DNA of 64,000 nt from an uncultured Acidobacteriota bacterium (GTDB taxonomy: Bacteria > Acidobacteriota > Terriglobia > Acidiferrales > UBA7541): NCBI GenBank assembly GCA_963779005.1, contig CAVZWO010000006.1, positions 362,125 to 426,124 of the forward strand, given 5' to 3'. Within the stretch, counting starts at the first letter, position 1. Every line of letters starts with the position of its first letter. A model generated the notes under the pieces. It had not been told where the DNA came from, searched no databases, and worked only from the letters and a program-made list of their open reading frames with translations. Shown here one piece after another: positions 41,370 through 54,020 of the stretch. The translations under genes and the position numbers were made by a program.

Positions 41370-43841
41370 CTACTCGGCGCGGAGCGCTTCGACGGGATCG
41401 ACGGTGGCGGCGCGGCGTGAGGGCAGATAGCTGGCCACGAACGCGGTGGCGACCAGGCCGAGCGTGACGGCGATGTAGGTGAGGGGGTCCATGGCGCTGA
41501 CGTGAAAGAGCAACGAGGACATAAGGCGCACGGCGAACAGGGCGATGAGCAGACCAAAGGCGGCGCCGACGCTGGCGAGAATGAGGCCGTGTCGAACGAA
41601 CATGTTGGTTACGGTTTTTGTTTGTGCGCCGAGGGCCATGCGGATGCCGATTTCGCGGACGCGCTGCGAGACAGAATAGGCGACGACGCCATAGATGCCG
41701 ACAACGCCGAGAAGCAAAGCCATGGCACCGGCAACGGCCAGCATGATCAGGGTAAAAGAAGTGCGCGCCATGGATTCCCGGTAGAAAGACTGCATGGTAT
41801 CGACGCGGGACAGGGGGAGATTGGGGTTGATGGACCAAACAGCTTCGCGCAGTTCCTTCAAAAACGCTTGCGAGCCGGCGCGTGGGCTGCGTACTCCAAA
41901 CCGGGTATAACTTTCGACGCGGTGAGCCTGACCCTCGAAGCGCTCGAGTAAAGGCGGCCAATAGCACATCGAGGGCGGAGCCTTGGTAACGCCGTCGCCG
42001 TAGACATCGGTGACCACGCCGATGATTTCGCGCCAGTCATCGGTGCTGGCAACGCGAATGCGCTTGCCGAGAGCGTTGGCAGGAGACTGCCAGTAGTCGC
42101 GGGCAAAATTTTCCGAAATGAGAACGACGGGACGTTTCTGATAGACGTCGTCCCAGTTGATATCCCGGCCGGCCAGCAGCGGCGTGCCAACGGTGGAGAA
42201 GAAGCCAGGAGTGATGAAGGCAAAACGGCGAAGAGGAGGAAACTGGCCATCGGCAAGAGGGTGGTCTTCGGCATAGACGACATCGTTGTTGGAGCTGCCG
42301 TCCATGGGGAAAAGAGTGGAAGTGGCGACGGAGGAAACGCCGGGAATGGCCGCGATTTTCTCGCGCATGGCCTGGAAGCTGCGGATGACGGCTTCATCGG
42401 ACTTAATCTGATTCTCGGGAATGTTGATGCTGAAGGATTGCACGGTGGCAGGATCGGTGAAGCCAGGATTGACGCGGGTAATGGCGCGGAAGGTGCGGAT
42501 CATCAGGCCGGAGCAGATAAGGAGAACGAGAGCGAGCGCGACTTGCACGACGACGAGGACGCTGCGAACGCGATGCTGTTCGCGGCTTTGGCTGTTGCCG
42601 CGGCCGCCCTGGCGGATGCCGGTGTTCAGATGGACGCCCGCGTATTTGAAGACGGGGATGGCGCCAAAAAGGAGGCTGGCGAGGAGAGCGAGGACCAGGG
42701 TGAAGAGGAGCACAGGACCGTCGATGCCGATTTCGTTGAGGCGGGGAAGACCGGCGGGAGAAAGAGCGATGAGAATGCGGAGCGCGGCATAGGCGAGACC
42801 GAGTCCGATGGCGCTACCGAGTAAGCCTAGAATGACACTCTCGAAGAGGAGTTCTCCAGCGATGCGATAAGGGCCAGCGCCGAGGGCGGAGCGGACAGCA
42901 AGCTCCTGGCGGCGGCCTTCGACGCGGACGAGGAGGAGATTGGCGACGTTGGCGCAAGCAATGAGCAGAACCATGCCAATGGAGCCCATGAGGACCCAGA
43001 GCATGCTGCCGACGTCACCAACAACCTGGTTTTTGAGGGGATGAAGATTTGGGCCGATGTGGGCATCGTCAAAAAGTTTGGCGCTAAAGCCTGGCGGGGC
43101 GGGGAAGGAACGCACGACAAGAGGAAGCATGCGGGCGATGTCGGCGTTGGCTTGCTGAAGGGTGACGCCGGGCTTGAGGCGGGCGAGGCCTTGCTGGCTG
43201 AAATTGCCTAGGGTGGTTTTGCCGCGGTCCCACTTGAAGGGGAGAATGACGGCGGGATCCTGAAAATCGAGGAAGTGGAATTTGGCGGGCATGACGCCGA
43301 TGATTTGGTACGAAGCGCCGTCCAGCAGGATGTTCTGACCGAGGACGGAGGGCGCTCCGGCGAATTGTTTCTTCCAGAAGCCGTAGGTGATGATGACGGT
43401 ATCGGGCGCGCCTGGAGAGTCGTCCTGACGGGTGAAGGTGCGGCCGAGCAGCGGGGGAATGCCAAGGAGAGGAAGGGTGCCGTCGGTGACGTTGAGAGAG
43501 TCGATGCGTTCCGGCTGGGCGACGCCAGTCAGGGCGACGCGGCCGCCGCTATAAACGCCAACGTCCTGGAAGCTTTGGTTCTGCTCGCGGTATATGAAGT
43601 AGTTGGAGGGGGACATGTTGAGATCGTCGATGCCGATACCGGGAGCGGTGTGCCAGACGGCAACGAGTTCATTGGGTTTGGGGTAGGGGAGAGGCTTGAG
43701 GAGTACGCCTTCGAGGACGCTGAAGACAACGGTGTTGCCGCCGACGCCGGCGGCGAGAGTGATGAGCGTGATCGCGGTGAAGAGGGGCGCTTTGAGGAGG
43801 CGGCGTAAGACTTGTTTCATTTCGACCAGCAATGTTCGCAT
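41370..43841 (-). CDS. ADOP-family duplicated ABC permease (MacB/FtsX-like)
   Basis: Two MacB_PCD-FtsX halves; LLIACANVANLLL.R...RRQELAVRSALGAG, VSQRVREIGIRMALGA, RRAATVDPVEALRAE; start ATG 43841. Confidence 0.95.
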   Translation of the reverse strand: MRTLLVEMKQVLRRLLKAPLFTAITLITLAAGVGGNTVVFSVLEGVLLKPLPYPKPNELVAVWHTAPGIGIDDLNMSPSNYFIYREQNQSFQDVGVYSGGRVALTGVAQPERIDSLNVTDGTLPLLGIPPLLGRTFTRQDDSPGAPDTVIITYGFWKKQFAGAPSVLGQNILLDGASYQIIGVMPAKFHFLDFQDPAVILPFKWDRGKTTLGNFSQQGLARLKPGVTLQQANADIARMLPLVVRSFPAPPGFSAKLFDDAHIGPNLHPLKNQVVGDVGSMLWVLMGSIGMVLLIACANVANLLLVRVEGRRQELAVRSALGAGPYRIAGELLFESVILGLLGSAIGLGLAYAALRILIALSPAGLPRLNEIGIDGPVLLFTLVLALLASLLFGAIPVFKYAGVHLNTGIRQGGRGNSQSREQHRVRSVLVVVQVALALVLLICSGLMIRTFRAITRVNPGFTDPATVQSFSINIPENQIKSDEAVIRSFQAMREKIAAIPGVSSVATSTLFPMDGSSNNDVVYAEDHPLADGQFPPLRRFAFITPGFFSTVGTPLLAGRDINWDDVYQKRPVVLISENFARDYWQSPANALGKRIRVASTDDWREIIGVVTDVYGDGVTKAPPSMCYWPPLLERFEGQAHRVESYTRFGVRSPRAGSQAFLKELREAVWSINPNLPLSRVDTMQSFYRESMARTSFTLIMLAVAGAMALLLGVVGIYGVVAYSVSQRVREIGIRMALGAQTKTVTNMFVRHGLILASVGAAFGLLIALFAVRLMSSLLFHVSAMDPLTYIAVTLGLVATAFVASYLPSRRAATVDPVEALRAE

Positions 43842-44059
43842 GGACGCAACCCCCAGGACGCGAAACTTGAAAGATTTGACTGCTGCTGCAAGCCGCACTT
43901 CTATGTACGAAGACGCTTATGGAATGTTCCCATTAACCGCGGCGCGCAGAAACTAATTGCATCCAAATGCGTAATTGATGAGTGGTGCAAGGTAAAGCTG
44001 GCGGTTCGGGAGTGTTCAGAAGCTGCGGTGGGGTGTAGACTCGCGGAAGTGATGGGAAA

Positions 44060-45298
44060 ATGCCGCTTGTGGTGGCGGAAGGGGAGTTGAAGGCCGTGGG
44101 ACAGTCGATTCCCTTTGGACAACATATAGCAAGACCGCCGGTGGCGGTGCGGGTGGGTGCGGGAGTTGGCGCGCGTGTCGAGTCCGTGCCGTGGACGATC
44201 TGGTGCATGGTGGCGGGAGTTGTCAGCGGGATGATCGGCGGGCCGTGGGATATTTCGTGGCACATGTCGATCGGGCGAGACACGTTTTGGACTCCGGCGC
44301 ACATCATGATTCAGATGACCGGGGTGCTGGTGGGAATCGCGTGCGGATACATGATTTTGGCGGCGACGTTTGGGCATGACGCGGCGAGGCAGGAAGCGTC
44401 GGTGAAGATTTGGGGATTTCGCGGGCCTCTCGGCGCGTTCATTGCAGTGTGGGGATGCATTGCGATGCTGACGTCGGCGCCGTTCGATAATTGGTGGCAC
44501 AACGCGTATGGGCTGGACGTGAAAATTGTGAGCCCGCCGCACACTTTGCTTTCGCTCGGTTCGCTTTCCATCAAGATTGGGTTGATGGCGTTGATGGCCG
44601 GGTTGATGAACCGCGCTTCGGATGGCGTGCGCCGAACGCTGGGAGCACTTTTGCTTTTTATTGGCGCGGGGTGCGTGGCGCAGATGGGATTGATTCTGAC
44701 TGGCAGCACGTGGCCGACGGAGATGCACACCGCGGCGTGCTACTTGGCGGTGGCGATTGCGGCTCCAGCGGTGCTGATCGCGCCGGCGTGGGGTTCCCGG
44801 TGGCGATGGGGTTGCACGGTTGTTGCGGGGATCTATACGGCAGTGCTGCTGGCGTTCGAATGGATACTGCCGTTGTTTCCGGCGGAGCCAAAGCTGGGGC
44901 CGGTCTATCAGCACGTCACGCATTTAGTGCCACTGCGATTTCCGCTGCTCCTGATTGTGCCTGCGTTCGTCCTGGATCTTTTGTGGCGCAAGACGGGTGC
45001 ATGGGGAAGATGGAAGCTGGCGGCAGTGACGGGGCCGGCGCTTGTGCTGAGCTTCTTGGCGGTGCAGTGGCCATTTGCGAATTTTCTGATGTCGCCAGGG
45101 TCACGCAATTGGTTTTTCGGGACGGCGTACTTCGCGTATTTTGATCCGGCGAATATTCTTTATGATCCGTACAAGTTCCGAAATTTGGAAAGGCCGGGGC
45201 GGTTCTGGGCGTTGATGATGATGGCGCTCGTTTTCAGCGTGATTACAGCGCGGCTGGGATTCGCATGGGGAGATTGGATGCGGCGGCTGAGGCGGTGA
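44060..45298 (+). CDS. Polytopic membrane protein with PmoC/AmoC-like metal motifs and a PmoA/AmoA-like C-terminal half
   Basis: WDISWHMSIGRDTFWTPAH and FDNWWHNAYGLDVKIVSPPH; later WRWGCTVV..LLAFEWI, FPLLLIVPAFVLD, VTGPALVLSFLAVQWP; about 9-10 hydrophobic segments by eye. ORF is solid; family call is inference. Confidence 0.7.
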   Translation: MPLVVAEGELKAVGQSIPFGQHIARPPVAVRVGAGVGARVESVPWTIWCMVAGVVSGMIGGPWDISWHMSIGRDTFWTPAHIMIQMTGVLVGIACGYMILAATFGHDAARQEASVKIWGFRGPLGAFIAVWGCIAMLTSAPFDNWWHNAYGLDVKIVSPPHTLLSLGSLSIKIGLMALMAGLMNRASDGVRRTLGALLLFIGAGCVAQMGLILTGSTWPTEMHTAACYLAVAIAAPAVLIAPAWGSRWRWGCTVVAGIYTAVLLAFEWILPLFPAEPKLGPVYQHVTHLVPLRFPLLLIVPAFVLDLLWRKTGAWGRWKLAAVTGPALVLSFLAVQWPFANFLMSPGSRNWFFGTAYFAYFDPANILYDPYKFRNLERPGRFWALMMMALVFSVITARLGFAWGDWMRRLRR

Positions 45299-45417: not shown

Positions 45418-46911
45418 ATGCGGCGACGGACGATCTGGATTTTTATACTGGTGTTGGTGGCGGCGATTTCGGTGAGCGCGCACGTGGGAAGCGCGGACGT
45501 GTTTTTTGAGGGAGATGCTGGGCCGTATCACCTTTACGTGACGGTACGCGTGCCTCAAGTGATTCCGGGGATCGCGGAAATTCAAGTGCGCAGCGCTTCG
45601 AATGATGTGGAGAAGGTCGAAATTGTTCCGATGCGGCTGAGCGGGGCGGGTTCGAACTTTCCTCCGACTCCGGACGTCGCGGAAAGATCGAAGCAAGATC
45701 CGCAATTCTTTACCGGAAGTTTGTGGCTGATGGAATCTGGAGCGCTGAAGGTGCGTGTTTCCGTGGAGGGCAGTAAAGGCAAGGGAGAACTTGCGGTGCC
45801 CGTACCGGCGTATGCACAGAGAACTCTTCCTATGGAGCGATCCCTCAGCGGCCTGCTGGGATTTTTGATGGTGTTTCTGGCGGTGGGTCTGGTGTTCATC
45901 GCAGGAGCGGCGTCGCGGGAAGGAAATCTGGAGCCGGGAGAGATGCCGTCGCCCGCGAGAGCAAGACGCGCCAGACTCGTGATGGTGATTACAGCGGTGA
46001 TCGTCCTGGGAATTATCTATCTGGGGAAAGCGTGGTGGGGCGCGGAAGCTTCGAACTACAAGCGAGGCGTCAATTTTTTCAAACCGCCGGAAGCGGAGAC
46101 GCAGCTCGTTAACGGAAATCGGCTGGTGATCCGAGCCAAGGGACAGGATCCGGAGTGGTCGAGAGAAGTAAAGATGGAAGACGTAATTCCGGATCACAGC
46201 CATCTGATGCACTTGTTTTTGATGAGCACGCCAGGGATGGAACGTATGTGGCATTTGCATCCGGAGCGAGGAGAGAGCGGATCGTTTGTGGACGAGCTGC
46301 CGAATATGCCGGCAGGGCACTACGAAGTGTTCGCGGACATCGTGGACAAGGCGGGTTTTCCCTGGACGCTGGTAGGGCAAGTGGATTTGCCGCAGATAAA
46401 TGGGAAGGCGCTTGCGGGGGATGACTCGACTTGGACGGGAACGGCGTTGGCAGCGCAGGCCGGCGATGCGACCGTCGCGCAACTTGCGGACGGTGGGCGG
46501 ATCGTTTGGGAAAAGGGAAGCGCGCCGTTGGTCGCGAATGCGGCGATGGTGTTCAAGTTCAGAGTTGAGGATAAGGACGGGAACCCCGCGAAAGATATGG
46601 AGCCGTACATGGGAATGGCCGGGCACGCGGAGTTCGTTAGCTCTGATATGAGCGTGTTTGCGCACATCCATCCGGCGGGCTCGGCTTCGATGGCCGCGCT
46701 GGATCTGGCGAACGGTACCCCTGCAGCGGGAGCTGTCGCCGCGGAAGGAAGCATGCCCAGCGGGATGGCCATGGCGATGCCGACGGGTGCGCTTGAGCCG
46801 GAAGTCACCTTTCCTTACGGTTTTCCCAAGGCCGGAGAGTACAGAATTTTCGTTCAAATCAAACGCGGTGGGCAAGTGGAAACCGGCGTCTTCGACGCTC
46901 ACGTACAGTGA
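45418..46911 (+). CDS. Putative copper-binding membrane protein: signal, N-terminal His, beta domain, 2 TM, two His-rich YtkA/Ig-like domains
   Basis: VSA-HVGS cleavage; TM LSGLLGFLMVFLAVGLVFIAG and LVMVITAVIVLGIIYLG; DHSHLMH..HLHP and GMAGH..HIHP; Met-rich loop; GAGGAG RBS. Confidence 0.72.
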   Translation: MRRRTIWIFILVLVAAISVSAHVGSADVFFEGDAGPYHLYVTVRVPQVIPGIAEIQVRSASNDVEKVEIVPMRLSGAGSNFPPTPDVAERSKQDPQFFTGSLWLMESGALKVRVSVEGSKGKGELAVPVPAYAQRTLPMERSLSGLLGFLMVFLAVGLVFIAGAASREGNLEPGEMPSPARARRARLVMVITAVIVLGIIYLGKAWWGAEASNYKRGVNFFKPPEAETQLVNGNRLVIRAKGQDPEWSREVKMEDVIPDHSHLMHLFLMSTPGMERMWHLHPERGESGSFVDELPNMPAGHYEVFADIVDKAGFPWTLVGQVDLPQINGKALAGDDSTWTGTALAAQAGDATVAQLADGGRIVWEKGSAPLVANAAMVFKFRVEDKDGNPAKDMEPYMGMAGHAEFVSSDMSVFAHIHPAGSASMAALDLANGTPAAGAVAAEGSMPSGMAMAMPTGALEPEVTFPYGFPKAGEYRIFVQIKRGGQVETGVFDAHVQ

Positions 46912-47021: not shown

Positions 47022-48494
47022 TTGGCGTATCGGGATTTGCGGGAGTTTGTCCAGAAGCTGGAGAAGGAAGGGGAGCTGAAGCGGATTCGCGCAGAAGTGG
47101 ACCCGATTCTGGAAATTACGGAAGTGACACAGCGGGTTGCGCGAGACAAGAACCGCTTGCCGGACAGCGTCGGTCCGGCTCTGCTCTTTGAGAAGCCGAA
47201 GGGTTCGCGTGTGCCGCTTTTGGTGAACACATTTGGCAGCGTGCGGCGCATGGCGCTGGCGTTTGAAGTGGGCGAATTGGACGAAGTGGCGGCGCGGATT
47301 CAGGGATTTTTGAAGATGGAGACGCCGCAGGGGCTCTTCGACAAAATCAAGATGTTGCCAAAGCTGGCGGAGTTGGGCTCATTTTTCCCCAAGACCGTGA
47401 AGTCAGGGCCGTGCAAGGAAGTGATGCACCACGGCACAGATGTGAACCTCTTTGATTTTCCGATTCTGAAATGCTGGCCGCAGGATGGCGGGCGCTTTAT
47501 CACGTTTCCGCTGGTATTCACGAAAAATCCGGAGACGGGCAAGCGCAATGTTGGGATGTACCGGATGCAAGTCTACGACGAACGAACGACCGGGATGCAC
47601 TGGCAGACACAAAAACACGGCGCGGAACACTTCCGGCGCGCGAGGGCTAAAAATCCGGAAGGGCGCATCTCTGTAAGCGTAGCGATTGGTGCGGATCCTG
47701 CCACGGCGCTTTCGGGAATGCTCCCGATTCCTCCGGATTTGGACGAAATGATGTTCGCAGGGTTCTTGCGCCGCGAACCCGTCGAGATGGTGCCGTGCGA
47801 GACAAATGATCTCGAAGTTCCCGCGAACGCAGAAGTCGTTCTGGAAGGCTATGTGAATTTGAACGAAATGCGTACGGAAGGGCCGTTCGGCGATCACACG
47901 GGATTCTATTCGCTGGAAGGGGAGTATCCCGTTTTTCATGTGGAGTGTGTGACGCACAAGAAGGACCCCATCTACCTCACCACAGTGGTGGGGCCGCCGC
48001 CGCAGGAAGACTATTACATGGGCTACGCGGTCGAGCGCGTGTTTCTGCCGGTGATGAAGATGCAGTATCCGGAAATTGTGGATGTGGCGATGCCGGCCGA
48101 GGGAATTTTCCACAACCTGATGATTGTGGCGATTCGCAAGTCCTACCCGGGACACGCGCGCAAAATCATGAACGCGATTTGGTCGCTGGGCCAGGCGATG
48201 TTCACAAAAGTTATTGTCGTGGTGGACCACGACGTGAACGTACGCAACTATAGCGAAGTGGTCTGGAAGGCTCTGTGCGCCCTCGACCCCGAGCGCGACG
48301 TGCAATTCTCTTTAGGGCCCGTGGACACGCTGGATCACGCGCAAAGAATGCAGGACTACGGTTCGAAAATGGGAATCGACGCGACGCGCAAGTGGGAGAC
48401 GGAAGGATTCACGCGCCCGTGGCCGGATGAAATCCTGATGGATGAGGCAACACGCGCGCGCATCGCCGCCATCTGGAAAACATTGCAACTGTGA
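47022..48494 (+). CDS. ubiD: UbiD-family (prFMN) decarboxylase, probably quinone biosynthesis
   Basis: YRDLREF...LE..GEL, NVGMYRMQ, MHWQ..KHG, EGPFGDHTGFY, VGPPPQED, SKMGIDAT; TTG start with GGAGG. Confidence 0.92.
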   Translation: MAYRDLREFVQKLEKEGELKRIRAEVDPILEITEVTQRVARDKNRLPDSVGPALLFEKPKGSRVPLLVNTFGSVRRMALAFEVGELDEVAARIQGFLKMETPQGLFDKIKMLPKLAELGSFFPKTVKSGPCKEVMHHGTDVNLFDFPILKCWPQDGGRFITFPLVFTKNPETGKRNVGMYRMQVYDERTTGMHWQTQKHGAEHFRRARAKNPEGRISVSVAIGADPATALSGMLPIPPDLDEMMFAGFLRREPVEMVPCETNDLEVPANAEVVLEGYVNLNEMRTEGPFGDHTGFYSLEGEYPVFHVECVTHKKDPIYLTTVVGPPPQEDYYMGYAVERVFLPVMKMQYPEIVDVAMPAEGIFHNLMIVAIRKSYPGHARKIMNAIWSLGQAMFTKVIVVVDHDVNVRNYSEVVWKALCALDPERDVQFSLGPVDTLDHAQRMQDYGSKMGIDATRKWETEGFTRPWPDEILMDEATRARIAAIWKTLQL

Positions 48495-49060: not shown

Positions 49061-50098
49061 ATGGGCAAAAACAAGCAACTGGTAGGGCTGGACATCGGCT
49101 CTAGCTCGATCAAAGCGGTCGAGCTGAAGTCAACGAAGGCCGGCTATGAGCTGGTGAGCTTTGGCATGGAATCGCTGGCGCAGGACACGGTGGTGGATGG
49201 CGCGATCATGGACGCGCCCCAAGTGGCCAACGCGATCAGCAAGATTTTCGACGCGCAACGGATAAAGACAAAGAATGTGGCAACTTCGGTTTCGGGACAC
49301 TCGGTGATCGTGAAGCGAGTGCCGCTGCCTCTGATGACAGAAGAAGAGTTGTATGACCGCATTCCTTCGGAGGCCAGCCAGCACATTCCCTTCGACATCG
49401 CGGACGTGAACCTCAGCTACCAATTGCTGGAATCGATGGACGCGCAGATGGACGTCCTCTTGGTTGCCGTGAAGAAAGACAAAATTCTCAATCACACCAA
49501 CGTGCTTGCGCAGGCAGGCAAGACGCCAGTGGTCGTGGACATTGACGCTTTCGGCTTGCAGAACTGCTTCGAAGTGAACTATGAACCAGATGCCGGGCAG
49601 ACGGTGGCGCTGCTCAACATTGGCGCCAGCGTCATGAACATTAATATCGTCAGGGGCGGCGTGCCGCTGTTTACGCGCGACGTCAGCGTCGGCGGCAACC
49701 AGTATACGGACGCCCTTCAGAAGGAATTGGATCTAAGCTTTGAGGATGCGGAGCGCCTGAAAAAAGGCGACACCCTCCCCAGCGTGACCGACGAGCAAAA
49801 GCAACAGATTCTGCGCAGCGTCTCGGACATTCTAACGCTGGAAATTCAAAAGACCTTTGACTTCTTCCGCGCCACGGCGAGCGGCGAGAACATCCAGCGT
49901 ATCGTCGTAGCGGGCGGAACGGCGCGCGTTCCCGGACTTGTGGATTTGCTCCGCGAAGAATTTGCGATGCCCGTCGAGGAACTCAATCCATTCCGCAAGG
50001 TGCTCGTCAATCCCAGCCGGCACAGCGATGACCAGATTCGCGAGATGTCGCCGCGGCTGGCCATTGCCGTGGGTCTGGCACTGAGGAGCTTTGACTAA
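49061..50098 (+). CDS. pilM: Type IV pilus assembly ATPase-like protein PilM
   Basis: VGLDIGSSSIKAVEL, VIVKRVPLP, LLNIGAS, VAGGTA, AIAVGLALR. Confidence 0.95.
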   Translation: MGKNKQLVGLDIGSSSIKAVELKSTKAGYELVSFGMESLAQDTVVDGAIMDAPQVANAISKIFDAQRIKTKNVATSVSGHSVIVKRVPLPLMTEEELYDRIPSEASQHIPFDIADVNLSYQLLESMDAQMDVLLVAVKKDKILNHTNVLAQAGKTPVVVDIDAFGLQNCFEVNYEPDAGQTVALLNIGASVMNINIVRGGVPLFTRDVSVGGNQYTDALQKELDLSFEDAERLKKGDTLPSVTDEQKQQILRSVSDILTLEIQKTFDFFRATASGENIQRIVVAGGTARVPGLVDLLREEFAMPVEELNPFRKVLVNPSRHSDDQIREMSPRLAIAVGLALRSFD

Positions 50099-50100
50099 CC

Positions 50101-50754
50101 ATGATTCGCATAAACCTTCTCGGACAAATTAGGCCCAAAGCGTCGCGGCGGCCCGTTGACACCGGTGCGGCGCTGCCGATCCTCTTTATTGGCGCGGGCT
50201 TTGTACTCGGCATCCTGGTCCTTGGCTTCCTCTACTATTCGTGGCAACAGCAGCTCAATACGGAAAACAACAAGATCAAGACGCTGCAGGCGCAGAAGAC
50301 CGATCTCGAGAACATCAAGCAGCAAGTCGAGGCATTCGATAAACAAAAACAGGTTCTCCAGCAACGGGTCTCGACGATCGAGCAGTTGCAGCGGGATCGC
50401 ACGGGCGGGCAGGATTTGCTCGACATGGTGGCGAATACGGTTTCCCGCACGGAGAATCTGTGGCTGACGACAATGACGCGAAAGGGAACCACCCTTTCGA
50501 TTGAGGGCTCTTCGGCTTCCGTGAATGCGGTGGCCAATTTCATCACCGCACTGAAGCGCTCGGGTTATTTCCAGAAGGTGGAAATCAAGGAAACCAAGCA
50601 GGACGACAAGAATACGTCGGTGCAGACGTATAACTTTCAGTTAACCGCGGAAATCACTCCGCCGCAACCGGTGGCAGCACCTCCGGCGCAGCCAAAGCCG
50701 GCCAACACGCCGGCGAAAGCCGCGCCAGCCGCGACTCCGGCCAAGAAAGGATAA
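50101..50754 (+). CDS. pilN: Type IV pilus assembly protein PilN
   Basis: MIRINLL, one TM, coiled coil, LWLT..LSIEG; operon position. Confidence 0.9.
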   Translation: MIRINLLGQIRPKASRRPVDTGAALPILFIGAGFVLGILVLGFLYYSWQQQLNTENNKIKTLQAQKTDLENIKQQVEAFDKQKQVLQQRVSTIEQLQRDRTGGQDLLDMVANTVSRTENLWLTTMTRKGTTLSIEGSSASVNAVANFITALKRSGYFQKVEIKETKQDDKNTSVQTYNFQLTAEITPPQPVAAPPAQPKPANTPAKAAPAATPAKKG

Positions 50755-50763
50755 CGGACGACC

Positions 50764-51414
50764 ATGGCCAATCCGTTTCGAGACATGTCGGTGTTCATGC
50801 AAGGCCTGGTGGCCGTAGCCATCGCGGTCGTCGTGCTTCTCCTCGGCGTTTACATTCCGCTCTCACCCGTAGCGCAGGAACGGGATTCCGTGGACAAAGC
50901 CGTGCAACAGCGCTCGACTTTGAGTACCGAAGTGCAGCAATTGCAGGTTTACAGGCAGCGGTATGGCGAACTGAAGCAGCAGATGGACGCGCTGTCGAAG
51001 CAACTCGATACGCTCAAGACCATTGTTCCCGAGGAAAAAGAGACGGATGAATTCATCCGCTTGATCCAGGGAGCGGCGGGCGCGTCAAACGTTTCGATTC
51101 GCCGGTTGACGGCGCTGGCCATCGTGCCGCGAGATTTTCATTATGAAATGCCGTTCGAGGTGCAGGCGGACGGGCCGTATTTCAATCTGATGGATTTCTT
51201 TGGGCGGTTGGGCCGGCTTTCGCGAATCATCAACGTAGGCGATCTGGATTTCGCGGATCCGGATAAGTCCAAGGGCACCAAGTACCCTATACGTCCGGGA
51301 ACAACAGTCTCGGCGATTTTTACGGCAACTACTTTCTTTACCAAGCCAGCTGACGTGGCAGCGGCTCCGGGAGCACCGGGGGCGAAGTCCGCAGTCAAGC
51401 CGGTGGGGAAATAA
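50764..51414 (+). CDS. pilO: Type IV pilus assembly protein PilO
   Basis: TM + coiled coil, VPEEKE.DEF, FHYEMP..V...G.YFNL..FF..LGRLSRIINV. Confidence 0.9.
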   Translation: MANPFRDMSVFMQGLVAVAIAVVVLLLGVYIPLSPVAQERDSVDKAVQQRSTLSTEVQQLQVYRQRYGELKQQMDALSKQLDTLKTIVPEEKETDEFIRLIQGAAGASNVSIRRLTALAIVPRDFHYEMPFEVQADGPYFNLMDFFGRLGRLSRIINVGDLDFADPDKSKGTKYPIRPGTTVSAIFTATTFFTKPADVAAAPGAPGAKSAVKPVGK

Positions 51415-51438
51415 CCCTTGAGCGGGAATGAGCGATCT

Positions 51439-51978
51439 ATGCGTTCAGCACTAACTCTCGTACTAGGGATTTTGCTCGCGGCAGCCGCACCTGGGCTGCG
51501 TGCGCAAGCGAATCCGGCGGCGCCGGCGGCGAAAAAGCCAGCGGCAAAACCCGCAAGGAATAGAGCGGCGAGGGCTCCCAAGCCCGCCAAGCCTGTCGAG
51601 ACCGCGGTCAATCCAGACGCGCCGAGGGAAGGCGAAGAAAAGGGCGCGCGTCGCGATCCGTTCGAGTCTCTGGTGGCACGCCAGCAGGCGCAAAGAAGCA
51701 TCTCCGAGAAGTTGCCCCCGGGTAAGGCCGGCCTTCAAGTCAGCACTCTGCGTCTGGATGGCATTGTGAAAGCCCCGAACGGGATGATTGCCGTCGTGAC
51801 CAACCCCCAGGCGCGTACCTATTTCCTCCGGGAAGGCGACCAGTTGTACGACGGACGCGTGGAAAAGATTGCGATGGATGGCGTTTCGTTCCATGAAATC
51901 GGGAAAGATGCATTTGGCAAACCCGTGGAACGCCAAGTAAACAAGAGAATTTACTCCAGTGCAGGAGAACAGCAATGA
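51439..51978 (+). CDS. pilP: PilP-like pilus assembly protein
   Basis: RRDPFESL, LRLDGIV, YFLREGDQLYDGRVEKI; between pilO and pilQ. Confidence 0.75.
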   Translation: MRSALTLVLGILLAAAAPGLRAQANPAAPAAKKPAAKPARNRAARAPKPAKPVETAVNPDAPREGEEKGARRDPFESLVARQQAQRSISEKLPPGKAGLQVSTLRLDGIVKAPNGMIAVVTNPQARTYFLREGDQLYDGRVEKIAMDGVSFHEIGKDAFGKPVERQVNKRIYSSAGEQQ

Positions 51979-54020
51979 AGACGAATTGGCCCGCCTTTCG
52001 GTGCGGCTTCCTGATCCTTGCGAGCGCAGCGCTGGGCGCAAGCCCGATGCTCGCTCAGACGCAGGAGCCCGCCGGCGCGACCGCGACCTCCGCGGTGATC
52101 TCAAGCGTGGCGATAACGCAAGCGCCGCAACGCGCCAGTGTGCGTGTGGAAGGCGAAGGGCGTCTCGATGCCCGTGTCTCGCGCATGCAGAATCCAGAGC
52201 GATTGGTGCTCGATTTCTCGGGCGCACGCCTGGCGGTGGATAAGACTCTTATCCCCGGCGTCTCGGAGCCTGTTCGCGACGTTCGCCTCGGACAGTATCG
52301 TCCGAACGTTGCCCGCGTTGTCGTGGACCTGAGCGGCGTGACTCCTTACCAGATTTCCCATGACGGATCGGCTCTGGTCATCCTGTTTGACGCACAGCCG
52401 GAAGCGCCCAGCGCAACTCCATCGAATCCCCCGACGGTGACTTCGGAGCAGTCCACGAAGACGCGTGCGGGATTCGAGTACAGCGCCGCGGCTCCCCGTG
52501 CAGCTTCGCGGCCTTCCAACTCTTTGCAGATTCCTCCTCCTCGTTTCGCACTGCCCGGCGAACTGACCCAGCCCTCATTCACCCTGGCTTCTTTCAGCGG
52601 GAAGAATGAGCCAGCGCGTCCGGCAACAGCGCAAGACGCGGCGCAGCAAGCGGCGCAAGCGTCGAATGCGGCGGCCAACAAGCTAGCGGCCACCACCGCG
52701 CAAACGCAGGCGCCTTCGGGTCCTGTGGCGCCTGGAAAGTACACAGGCGAGCCAATCTCAGTGAACCTGAAAGACGTCGATCTGCGCGACTTCTTCCGCC
52801 TGATTCACGAAATCAGCGGCCTGAACGTCGTGCTGGACCCGGCGGTAAAGGGGACGCTGACGATCGTTCTCGATGAAGTGCCCTGGGATCAGGCGCTGGA
52901 CATCGTTCTCCAGAACAACGGCCTGGACAAGCAACTGAACGGAAACGTCCTGCGCATCGCCACTCGCAATACGCTCAAGACCGAAGCGGAAACACAGCGC
53001 GACCTGGAAAAGGCCCAGGCGGAAGCCATCGCACCGACTACCACCACCCGCGTGCTCAGTTACGCGAAGGCCTCCACGCTGGCAGCGACGTTGAAGAAGT
53101 TTCTCAGTCCCCGCGGCGACATCATCGCCGATGACCGATCCAATCAGCTCATCATCCGCGATATCCCGGTGGTCTTCCCGGTCATCGACAACCTGATCCG
53201 CCAGTTGGACCGCAAATCTCAGCAGGTAGAGATCGAGGCTCGCGTCATCTCCGCGACCCGCTCCTTCGCCCGTGACATCGGCACCGAACTGGGTTTCTCG
53301 GGTGCAAGCACCACCCTGCACAACCAGAACGAATGGTACGGCTCGCCGCAAGTCGGTGTCAGCCCCGGTCCGATCAACTCGACTCCCGTTCCTCCTCTCG
53401 TCACAACACCGACGAATACCTCGACCGGCGGTCCACAGAGCGGTATCCCACTCGCCACGAGCCTTAGCGCGGGCGTTCCGACGTCTGGCGTAGGCTACTC
53501 CTTCAGGTCGGCTAACTTCGCCCTGGACTTCTTTATCTCGGCCGCGGAATCGAAGGGCGTGGGCAAATTGCTCTCGAAGCCGCGCATCGTGACGCAGAAC
53601 AATGAGAAGGCCGTCATCAAGCAGGGCGTCAAGTTGCCCATTCAGACGACCATCAACAACACCATTTCGGTGCAGTTCATCGACGCCGTGCTGCAACTCG
53701 AAGTTACTCCGCAGATTACGGCCGAAGGCACCATCTTCATGGACGTGCTCGTGGAGAATACGCAGATCGATCAAGGTATTCCCCGCGTGCAAGGCATCCC
53801 GGCGTTGGACACGCAGTCCGCGCAGACCAAAGTGCTGGTTCCGGACGGCGGAACGGTCGTGATTGGCGGCATCATCGTCTCGACCCAGAACACCTCCATC
53901 CAGGAGGTTCCCATTGTCGGCAGCTTGCCGCTGATCGGAAACCTCTTCAAGCGCACGAACGTATCCATCACATCTCAGGAATTGCTGTTCTTCCTGACGC
54001 CACGAATCATACCCGGGTAA
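51975..54020 (+). CDS. pilQ: Type IV pilus secretin PilQ (AMIN + secretin)
   Basis: NPERLVLDF AMIN domain, YTGEPISVNLKDVDLRDFF, VPWDQALD, QVEIEARV, LEVTPQI, GNLFK, ELLFFLTPRI. Confidence 0.95.
   Translation: MKTNWPAFRCGFLILASAALGASPMLAQTQEPAGATATSAVISSVAITQAPQRASVRVEGEGRLDARVSRMQNPERLVLDFSGARLAVDKTLIPGVSEPVRDVRLGQYRPNVARVVVDLSGVTPYQISHDGSALVILFDAQPEAPSATPSNPPTVTSEQSTKTRAGFEYSAAAPRAASRPSNSLQIPPPRFALPGELTQPSFTLASFSGKNEPARPATAQDAAQQAAQASNAAANKLAATTAQTQAPSGPVAPGKYTGEPISVNLKDVDLRDFFRLIHEISGLNVVLDPAVKGTLTIVLDEVPWDQALDIVLQNNGLDKQLNGNVLRIATRNTLKTEAETQRDLEKAQAEAIAPTTTTRVLSYAKASTLAATLKKFLSPRGDIIADDRSNQLIIRDIPVVFPVIDNLIRQLDRKSQQVEIEARVISATRSFARDIGTELGFSGASTTLHNQNEWYGSPQVGVSPGPINSTPVPPLVTTPTNTSTGGPQSGIPLATSLSAGVPTSGVGYSFRSANFALDFFISAAESKGVGKLLSKPRIVTQNNEKAVIKQGVKLPIQTTINNTISVQFIDAVLQLEVTPQITAEGTIFMDVLVENTQIDQGIPRVQGIPALDTQSAQTKVLVPDGGTVVIGGIIVSTQNTSIQEVPIVGSLPLIGNLFKRTNVSITSQELLFFLTPRIIPG

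Follow-up and report, generated by a model that had tools for sequence, protein, structure and literature searches.

Is the paired copper site of PmoC and AmoC, the subunits that contribute it to particulate methane monooxygenase (pMMO) and to ammonia monooxygenase (AMO), reproduced in a family of bacterial membrane proteins that domain databases do not recognize, and if so, to what end? The question is raised by a gene at 44060..45298 in a 64-kb stretch of DNA from an uncultured Acidobacteriota bacterium (Terriglobia, Acidiferrales, UBA7541; assembly GCA_963779005.1, contig CAVZWO010000006.1, positions 362,125 to 426,124 of the forward strand), which in its full length of 64,000 nucleotides is termed the window below and in whose numbering all coordinates are given. 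The product of this gene is a predicted inner-membrane protein with no match in Pfam or NCBIfam, as is also the case for the product of its downstream partner gene, and a phmmer search of the PDB with it recovers noise only. A preliminary description made from the DNA letters had claimed that it reproduces both PmoC copper sites, CuC and CuD, with their exact spacing. We find that the first four of its transmembrane (TM) helices are very probably remotely homologous to the metal-binding core of PmoC/AmoC, and for the system as a whole we favor, on balance, a PmoC-like copper-type two-site enzyme that would act together with the partner. The parts of the membrane protein on which the argument turns are as follows:

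44060..45298, + strand: PmoC-like membrane-protein gene, a 412-residue open reading frame (ORF) of an unannotated family, coding for an inner-membrane protein with 10 TM helices.
44177..44383, + strand: repeat 1 (residues 40-108), a hairpin of TM1, a periplasmic loop and TM2, the probable homolog of the CuC hairpin of PmoC/AmoC.
44249..44302, + strand: motif 1, D64-x3-H68-x12-H81 (DISWHMSIGRDTFWTPAH), counterpart of CuC D156/H160/H173, with the D64 codon at 44249.
44384..44629, + strand: repeat 2 (residues 109-190), comprised of a cytoplasmic loop, TM3, a short periplasmic helix with a loop, and TM4, the internal duplicate of repeat 1.
44486..44542, + strand: motif 2, D143-x3-H147-x13-H161 (DNWWHNAYGLDVKIVSPPH), positional counterpart of CuD N227/H231/H245, with the H161 codon at 44540-44542.
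44615..45295, + strand: C-terminal six-TM domain (residues 186-412), without detectable relative.

Translation of 44060..45298 places D64, H68, H81, D143, H147, and H161 at the codons given in the preliminary description, and its arithmetic holds throughout: the spacings are +4/+13 in motif 1 and +4/+14 in motif 2, motif 1 shares 10 of 18 positions with PmoC, and the two motifs lie 79 residues apart as against 71 in PmoC. Motif 2 is identical to PmoC at 5 of 19 positions. The ligand sets that it had given for the Methylococcus capsulatus protein are likewise the published ones, namely Asp156/His160/His173 for CuC and Asn227/His231/His245 for CuD (PMC12576850). Our PmoC reference (M. capsulatus Bath) is 100% identical to PDB chain 7ev9_C, and to 1yew_C with an offset of +29.

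The relationship to PmoC/AmoC emerges from translated, profile-sequence, and profile-profile comparisons. With PmoC as the query against the whole window, tblastn places its top match exactly at 44249-44542 (E 8.7e-4, 27.6% identity over 98 residues). A family profile comprised of 70 full-length representatives, which are 28-55% identical to the query protein, retrieves just two chains from all of the PDB in HMMER searches extended to E 10, both of them AmoC (9leg_C, E 1.8e-4; 9cl6_C, E 2.9e-4) and both aligned on the CuC motif. When the same 70 members are scanned singly against Pfam, AmoC is matched weakly by 20 of them and every other family by two at most. The best profile match is, therefore, AmoC and not a zinc hydrolase of the CREST type, the alternative that the preliminary description had named. 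In hhalign comparisons, the family profile aligns with PmoC at a probability of 71-74% and E ~3e-5 over 86-147 columns, with D64/H68/H81 falling on D156/H160/H173 and D143/H147/H161 on N227/H231/H245. The same register pairs W67 with W130, R73-D74-T75 with R136-D137-T138, and P79 with P142 (PmoC being numbered here on its 260-residue chain); in the numbering of the copper ligands, R73/D74 of motif 1 align with PmoC R165/D166. Hairpin 1 taken separately (residues 40-108) matches the CuC hairpin of PmoC with a probability of 93% and E 2.5e-7.

An ungapped profile-profile scan yields the same assignment for each motif on its own. The best offset for motif 1 is PmoC 126, i.e., the CuC motif (score 53.3, runner-up 4.5), and that for motif 2 is PmoC 197, i.e., the CuD motif, with D143 on N198 (N227 in the ligand numbering; score 26.5, runner-up 9.9), while control scans of PmoA and PmoB do not rise above 6.5 over 621 offsets. 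When the column order of the motifs was shuffled, the observed score was equalled in 0 of 2000 shuffles for motif 1 and in 4 of 2000 for motif 2. Beyond the ligands, the likeness takes in the W, R-D-T, and T-P positions, the Pro that precedes the last His, and the acidic position 11 of motif 2; it is collinear over four helices. The in-register hhalign alignment, the ungapped scan, and the status of AmoC as the sole PDB and Pfam relative together support the claim that motifs 1 and 2 correspond to the CuC and CuD triads.

The family to which the protein belongs is very large: its members fall into at least 8000 clusters when grouped at 90% identity and into 2195 when grouped at 50% (E up to 1e-3), and they are found in at least 596 GTDB species genomes. 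The hosts are Acidobacteriota, Binataceae, Myxococcales-like organisms, and other soil bacteria represented by metagenome-assembled genomes (MAGs), and not methanotrophs or nitrifiers. A search of the full-text literature recovered no description of such a family, and a search for RNA-seq evidence of it returned soil-metagenome DNA runs only. Among the 70 representatives, conservation reaches or exceeds 90% at only some 26 positions, most of which are accounted for by the six putative ligands and their conserved neighbors in the motifs. The ligands themselves are retained at 93-99% (D64 96%, H68 93%, H81 97%, D143 99%, H147 94%, H161 96%), as the preliminary description's reading of them as metal ligands predicted; other highly conserved positions include W63, W67, G72, R73, D74, W145, W146, Y150, G151, L152, D153, and P160. 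The Asp of motif 2 (D143) is present in 69 of the 70 relatives, and at the same site PmoC has an invariant Asn; as the preliminary description proposed, this difference may affect which metal is preferred or how it reacts.

A small subgroup (P0203, P0268, and P0270) has D-E/D-H-D-Q-Q in place of the two Asp-His-His (DHH/DHH) triads, with positions 68, 147, and 161 changing together. This joint change across both triads suggests that the two sites are functionally linked, and the subgroup itself may use a different metal or have lost the function. Separately, about 15 cluster representatives (e.g., P0144, P0180, P0191, and P0196; 277-297 residues) start at profile position 121, equivalent to Met136, just before motif 2; these may be gene calls that were cut short or a split-gene variant devoid of hairpin 1. 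In some MAGs the family is represented twice, on different contigs (the locus pairs L022/L033 and L019/L080), and in the latter pair the partner gene lies directly downstream in L019 and is absent from L080.

Comparison with homologs indicates that the probable true start of the protein is not the ATG at 44060 but the GTG at 44096 (V13, codon 13), because most homologs begin with MGQSIPFG and a GGGGAG sequence lies ~10 nt upstream of this GTG. The ATG thus probably over-extends the ORF by 12 codons, and the true protein would have 400 residues; residue numbers here follow the 412-residue ORF and all drop by 12 with the GTG start. Ten TM helices are predicted from hydropathy and from the secondary structure of an AlphaFold2 (AF2) model, whose predicted local distance difference test score (pLDDT) is 66 overall and drops under 50 at the two motif loops. 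Lys and Arg are abundant at the N-terminus, in the TM2-3, TM4-5, TM6-7, and TM8-9 loops, and in the C-terminal RRLRR, and the motif loops (TM1-2 and TM3-4) alternate with these K/R-rich segments. By the positive-inside rule, this alternation points to both termini being cytoplasmic and both triads lying at the periplasmic edge of the membrane; thus, the possibility raised in the preliminary description that the motifs sit on opposite membrane faces is contradicted by their predicted location on one and the same, periplasmic, face. PmoC shows a comparable alternation, with the K/R-rich loops KTRDRNLAALTPREELRRN and AKTRLPFFAKG flanking the motif loops, and its metal site likewise lies toward the periplasm.

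The two hairpins of the membrane protein are related not only to PmoC but also to each other. Repeats 1 and 2 align in hhalign with a probability of 86% and E 4.7e-6, which indicates that they are an internal tandem duplication; in the same type of comparison, no internal repeat is detected between the two hairpins of PmoC itself. This suggests an origin of the CuC/CuD pocket in the duplication of one Asp-His-His hairpin. The simplest history would be one in which the duplicated hairpin has remained near-symmetric in the present family and has diverged in PmoC, with the Asp of the second copy changing to Asn.

The C-terminal half of the protein bears a different pattern of conservation, namely H223, an FPAxPxLGP loop, P295, and an acidic residue at position 306. 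H223 (44726..44728) is located in the periplasmic TM5-6 loop and is conserved at 86%; D306 (44975..44977) lies in TM8, at a position where an acidic residue is conserved at 91%. The former might serve the metal centre as an additional ligand or from its second sphere. Other than H223, which is in a periplasmic loop, TM5-10 have no conserved Met, Cys, or His lining the membrane among the 70 representatives. This absence of a conserved ligand ladder disfavors an ion path through the membrane. A relationship of the six-TM half to PmoA was also considered; the alignment is collinear, yet at E 0.016-0.03 and a probability below 3% it is not significant.

The gene immediately downstream codes for a protein with the following features:

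45418..46911, + strand: partner gene, coding for 497 residues with a signal peptide, an immunoglobulin (Ig)-like domain, a TM hairpin, and two more beta-sandwich domains.
45481..45483, + strand: His22, the predicted first residue of the mature partner (A21 / H22-V-G-S); both A21 and H22 show no or almost no variation in sets of 56 and of 40 homologs.
45844..46074, + strand: TM hairpin of the partner (residues 143-219), with AF2 helices at 143-168 and 179-219.
46192..46263, + strand: His cluster of partner domain 2, D259-H260-x-H262-x-M264-H265 ... H279-L-H281-P282, in invariant columns.
46606..46674, + strand: Met/His cluster of partner domain 3, Y397-M398-G-M400-x-x-H403 ... H416-x-H418-P419, then M425, in invariant columns.
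46708..46785, + strand: Met-rich linker of the partner, GSMPSGMAMAMPT, of low model confidence (pLDDT <50 at residues 431-456).

In 69 of the 80 loci compared, all from other species, a homolog of this partner is encoded immediately downstream and on the same strand, and the two genes are a conserved operon. The first, Ig-like, domain of the partner spans residues 28-128, and in a Foldseek search its AF2 model (pLDDT 72.6) finds generic tandems of Ig and fibronectin type III domains only. A profile of the partner family finds nothing meaningful in Pfam or the PDB, and the family is always annotated as hypothetical. Two candidate assignments were discarded, viz., TctB, whose Pfam matches are attributable to the TM hairpin, and YtkA, which rests on a single match at E 0.07. 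Domains 2 and 3 align with each other in register, weakly (E 0.007). H22 is the sole conserved His between residues 22 and 130, and the HxH motifs are confined to domains 2 and 3. The His-only cluster of domain 2 and the His/Met cluster of domain 3 recall the CuH/CuM pair of peptidylglycine monooxygenase. The partner may hold several copper sites of its own.

The only other recurrent association in the 80 loci is with a short-chain dehydrogenase/reductase (SDR). In 17 of the 69 partner-bearing loci (L011, L016, L019, L020, L021, L026, L037, L039, L040, L043, L050, L052, L057, L058, L062, L064, and L078), an orthologous SDR (adh_short, E 1e-50) is encoded 5-36 nt after the partner. This three-gene operon of membrane protein, partner, and SDR occurs in MAGs of Bryobacterales, Solibacter, and Acidiferrales. 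No copper-homeostasis gene recurs as a neighbor across the 80 loci. The SDR linkage fits a metabolic or redox operon better than one for metal transport.

A synthesis of these observations points to the following model. TM1-4 are two tandemly duplicated hairpins that very probably constitute a remote homolog of the PmoC/AmoC metal-binding core, each hairpin supplying an Asp-x3-His where one helix ends on the periplasmic side and a His where the next helix begins. By homology with the CuC/CuD pocket, which has been identified as pMMO's active site with its two sites ~5.7 Å apart (PMC11725843), the two triads would come together as a paired metal centre where the membrane borders the periplasm. 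That the triads bind metal is probable. Copper is the most likely metal, favored at slightly better than an even chance, since the motifs of the partner are typical of copper sites. The membrane protein would work with the partner, which is anchored by its TM hairpin and is predicted to expose three Ig-like domains to the periplasm; the partner would bind copper and then either deliver it, or relay electrons, to the membrane site. The activity we prefer is that of a copper-dependent redox or oxygenase-type enzyme acting on a membrane-soluble or periplasmic substrate, rather than that of a transporter, because TM5-10 lack a ligand path, the sole relative is catalytic, and an SDR is present in a quarter of the partner-bearing operons. 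Catalysis is nevertheless the most tentative component of this model, and we place it somewhat short of an even chance.

A more specific version of the model would make the family a sister lineage of the copper membrane monooxygenases: a two-subunit enzyme abundant in soil Acidobacteriota and neighboring phyla, with near-symmetric hairpins retained from the ancestral state out of which the CuC/CuD active site of pMMO and AMO would have evolved, oxidizing a substrate of its own, and passing its product to the SDR in some lineages. We regard this version as doubtful.

Comparison with PmoC and AmoC themselves (PF04896; PDB 7S4H/7EV9 and 9CL6/9LEG, chain C) shows both what is shared and what sets the present proteins apart. 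In common is the four-helix module of two TM hairpins, in which motif 1 (D-x2-W-H-x4-R-D-T-x2-T-P-x-H) presents the CuC ligands at identical spacing and the second triad keeps the CuD spacing (x3, x13) along with the W, the acidic position 11, and the Pro before the final His. However, PmoC has about 250-290 residues and six TM helices, as against 400-412 residues and 10 TM helices here, six of these being extra and C-terminal. Conversely, the alignment begins only at PmoC residue 86 of 260, such that the first ~95 residues of PmoC, with two helices, have no counterpart. The invariant Asn of CuD is replaced by Asp, the two hairpins are still recognizable duplicates in contrast to those of PmoC, and the protein falls under the Pfam gathering score. 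Further, pmoA and pmoB do not adjoin the gene, their place being taken in 69 of 80 loci by the gene for the unrelated 497-residue protein; in pMMO, the substrate cavity is formed in part by PmoA. Given these differences, we classify the protein as a member of a new family within the PmoC/AmoC superfamily, with a new partner, and not itself as a PmoC.

The partner invites a parallel comparison with PmoB/AmoB, with which it shares a His predicted to become N-terminal upon signal cleavage, beta-sandwich domains split by a two-helix TM hairpin, and co-encoding with a PmoC-like subunit. The differences are that PmoB has two beta-sandwich domains and the partner three, and that the partner lacks the CuB-type HxH of the PmoB N-terminal domain, its HxH and MxM motifs being in domains 2 and 3. 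When 56 homologs of the partner were scanned, not one matched a PmoB/AmoB Pfam family.

Several observations weigh against the proposed reading and are best considered together. The overall hhalign probability of the family against PmoC is just ~73%; the best Pfam match to AmoC among the 70 members (E 0.0011) is below the gathering score, and the query itself has no match to the Pfam AmoC model at E up to 1. Hairpin 2 alone (residues 109-190) is not significantly similar to PmoC (E 0.36) and in local mode favors the CuC motif. Accordingly, the earlier equation of motif 2 with CuD holds as far as collinearity and the ungapped scan (p ~0.002) carry it, and it does not extend to a match of the second hairpin in its own right. 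A Foldseek search of the PDB with the AF2 model returned nothing below E 0.2 and no PmoC or AmoC among the top 50; this negative is probably uninformative, given the low quality of the model at the motif loops and the poor scores that helical bundles obtain. On the side of the partner, there is no profile similarity to PmoB/AmoB (hhalign E 0.21 for the whole, 0.09-0.7 for single domains), and no PmoA or PmoB homolog is found in the window by tblastn or beside the relatives in the 80 loci. Eleven of the 80 loci are without an adjoining partner; one of these (L006) has almost no downstream sequence, and the remaining 10 have unrelated neighbors. The Met-rich linker and His/Met clusters of the partner would suit a copper-trafficking protein equally well. 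Finally, the family is named hypothetical protein wherever the source gives a name, its members being known from sequence alone.

The alternative that best withstands the evidence, which we nonetheless consider unlikely, is that the two proteins are a copper acquisition or trafficking pair in the manner of CopC/CopD or YcnI/YcnJ, in which the PmoC-like module binds and transfers the metal without catalysis. The N-terminal His of the partner would take up Cu(II) and its Met/His clusters Cu(I), and the membrane protein would import the metal or pass it to cuproenzymes. Those systems likewise pair a periplasmic Ig-like protein, with a mature N-terminal His and Met/His sites, with a polytopic membrane mate, and the invariant mature N-terminal His of the partner, its HxH and MxM clusters, and its Met-rich disordered linker are typical of copper chaperones. 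A two-gene operon that is widespread in heterotrophic soil bacteria, mostly at loci without conserved metabolic neighbors, is also compatible with trafficking, and 10 TM helices are within the range of transporters. However, the partner is membrane-anchored by its hairpin and much larger than its CopC or YcnI analogs, and Pfam scans as permissive as E 10 match neither protein to CopC, CopD, YcnI, or PCuAC. The membrane protein has AmoC as its only relative, i.e., a catalytic subunit of the copper membrane monooxygenases, and its TM5-10 offer no conserved path of Met, His, or Cys. The genomic context tells in the same direction, with an SDR tightly linked in 17 loci and no copper-homeostasis genes recurring nearby.

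An intramembrane metallohydrolase, or another enzyme using Zn, Fe, or Mn, is improbable. Under this alternative, the likeness to PmoC would be convergent, or homologous with a different metal, and the two triads together with D74 and D153 would constitute a carboxylate-rich dinuclear site. The family-wide Asp for Asn in site 2 and the two further invariant Asp residues in the loops are in keeping with it, as is the D-E/D-H-D-Q-Q subgroup, whose residues resemble a ligand set for harder metals. In the first PmoC crystal structure the CuC site reportedly held Zn, so that this ligand set would not be copper-specific. The intramembrane His/Asp metallohydrolases of the CREST superfamily in particular also conserve Asp and His at TM helix ends; nevertheless, they show no profile similarity to the present family, have 7 TM helices rather than 10, and do not share the motif pattern and spacing, which are those of PmoC. 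More generally, no CREST-type or other hydrolase appears in the Pfam scan of the 70 members or in the PDB search (E up to 10), the likeness to PmoC reaches past the ligands and is collinear over four helices, and the Met-containing clusters of the partner indicate copper.

That the resemblance is due to chance, with no metal site and the motifs serving a structural role, e.g., capping helices or forming a Trp/His belt that faces the lipid, is very improbable: the Foldseek negative, the low model confidence at the motif loops, and the non-significance of hairpin 2 alone in hhalign would allow for it, but HMMER, hhalign, tblastn, and the permutation tests all pick PmoC/AmoC, conservation within the family peaks at the six putative ligands, and one subgroup exchanges positions 68, 147, and 161 of both triads together, as would be expected of linked functional sites.

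The remaining neighbors of the two-gene operon in the window are as follows:

41370..43898, - strand: ADOP-family duplicated permease, the upstream neighbor.
47022..48494, + strand: UbiD-family decarboxylase, 110 nt after the partner.
49061..54020, + strand: pilM-pilN-pilO-secretin (pilMNOQ) cluster, the downstream neighbor.

ADOP permeases are an acidobacterial hallmark. The synteny with UbiD is limited to the closest relatives.

The preferred reading, namely a PmoC-like two-site copper enzyme acting with its partner, bears on a long-standing problem. The active copper site of pMMO and AMO has long been disputed, with the CuC/CuD pocket of PmoC now being the leading candidate, and pMMO is hard to study, being a three-subunit enzyme that depends on lipid and whose activity is lost upon isolation. 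A simpler and widespread homolog with both triads and without PmoA or PmoB would offer a second, independent system for examining metal binding and function in this pocket, and the family would show the origin of the pocket by duplication of a single Asp-His-His hairpin. The proposal is also the first functional hypothesis for a family that is present in hundreds of soil bacterial species and is labeled hypothetical in the databases. If these proteins are catalytic, they would point to a copper-dependent oxidation, hitherto unrecognized, in bacteria that are among the most abundant in soil.

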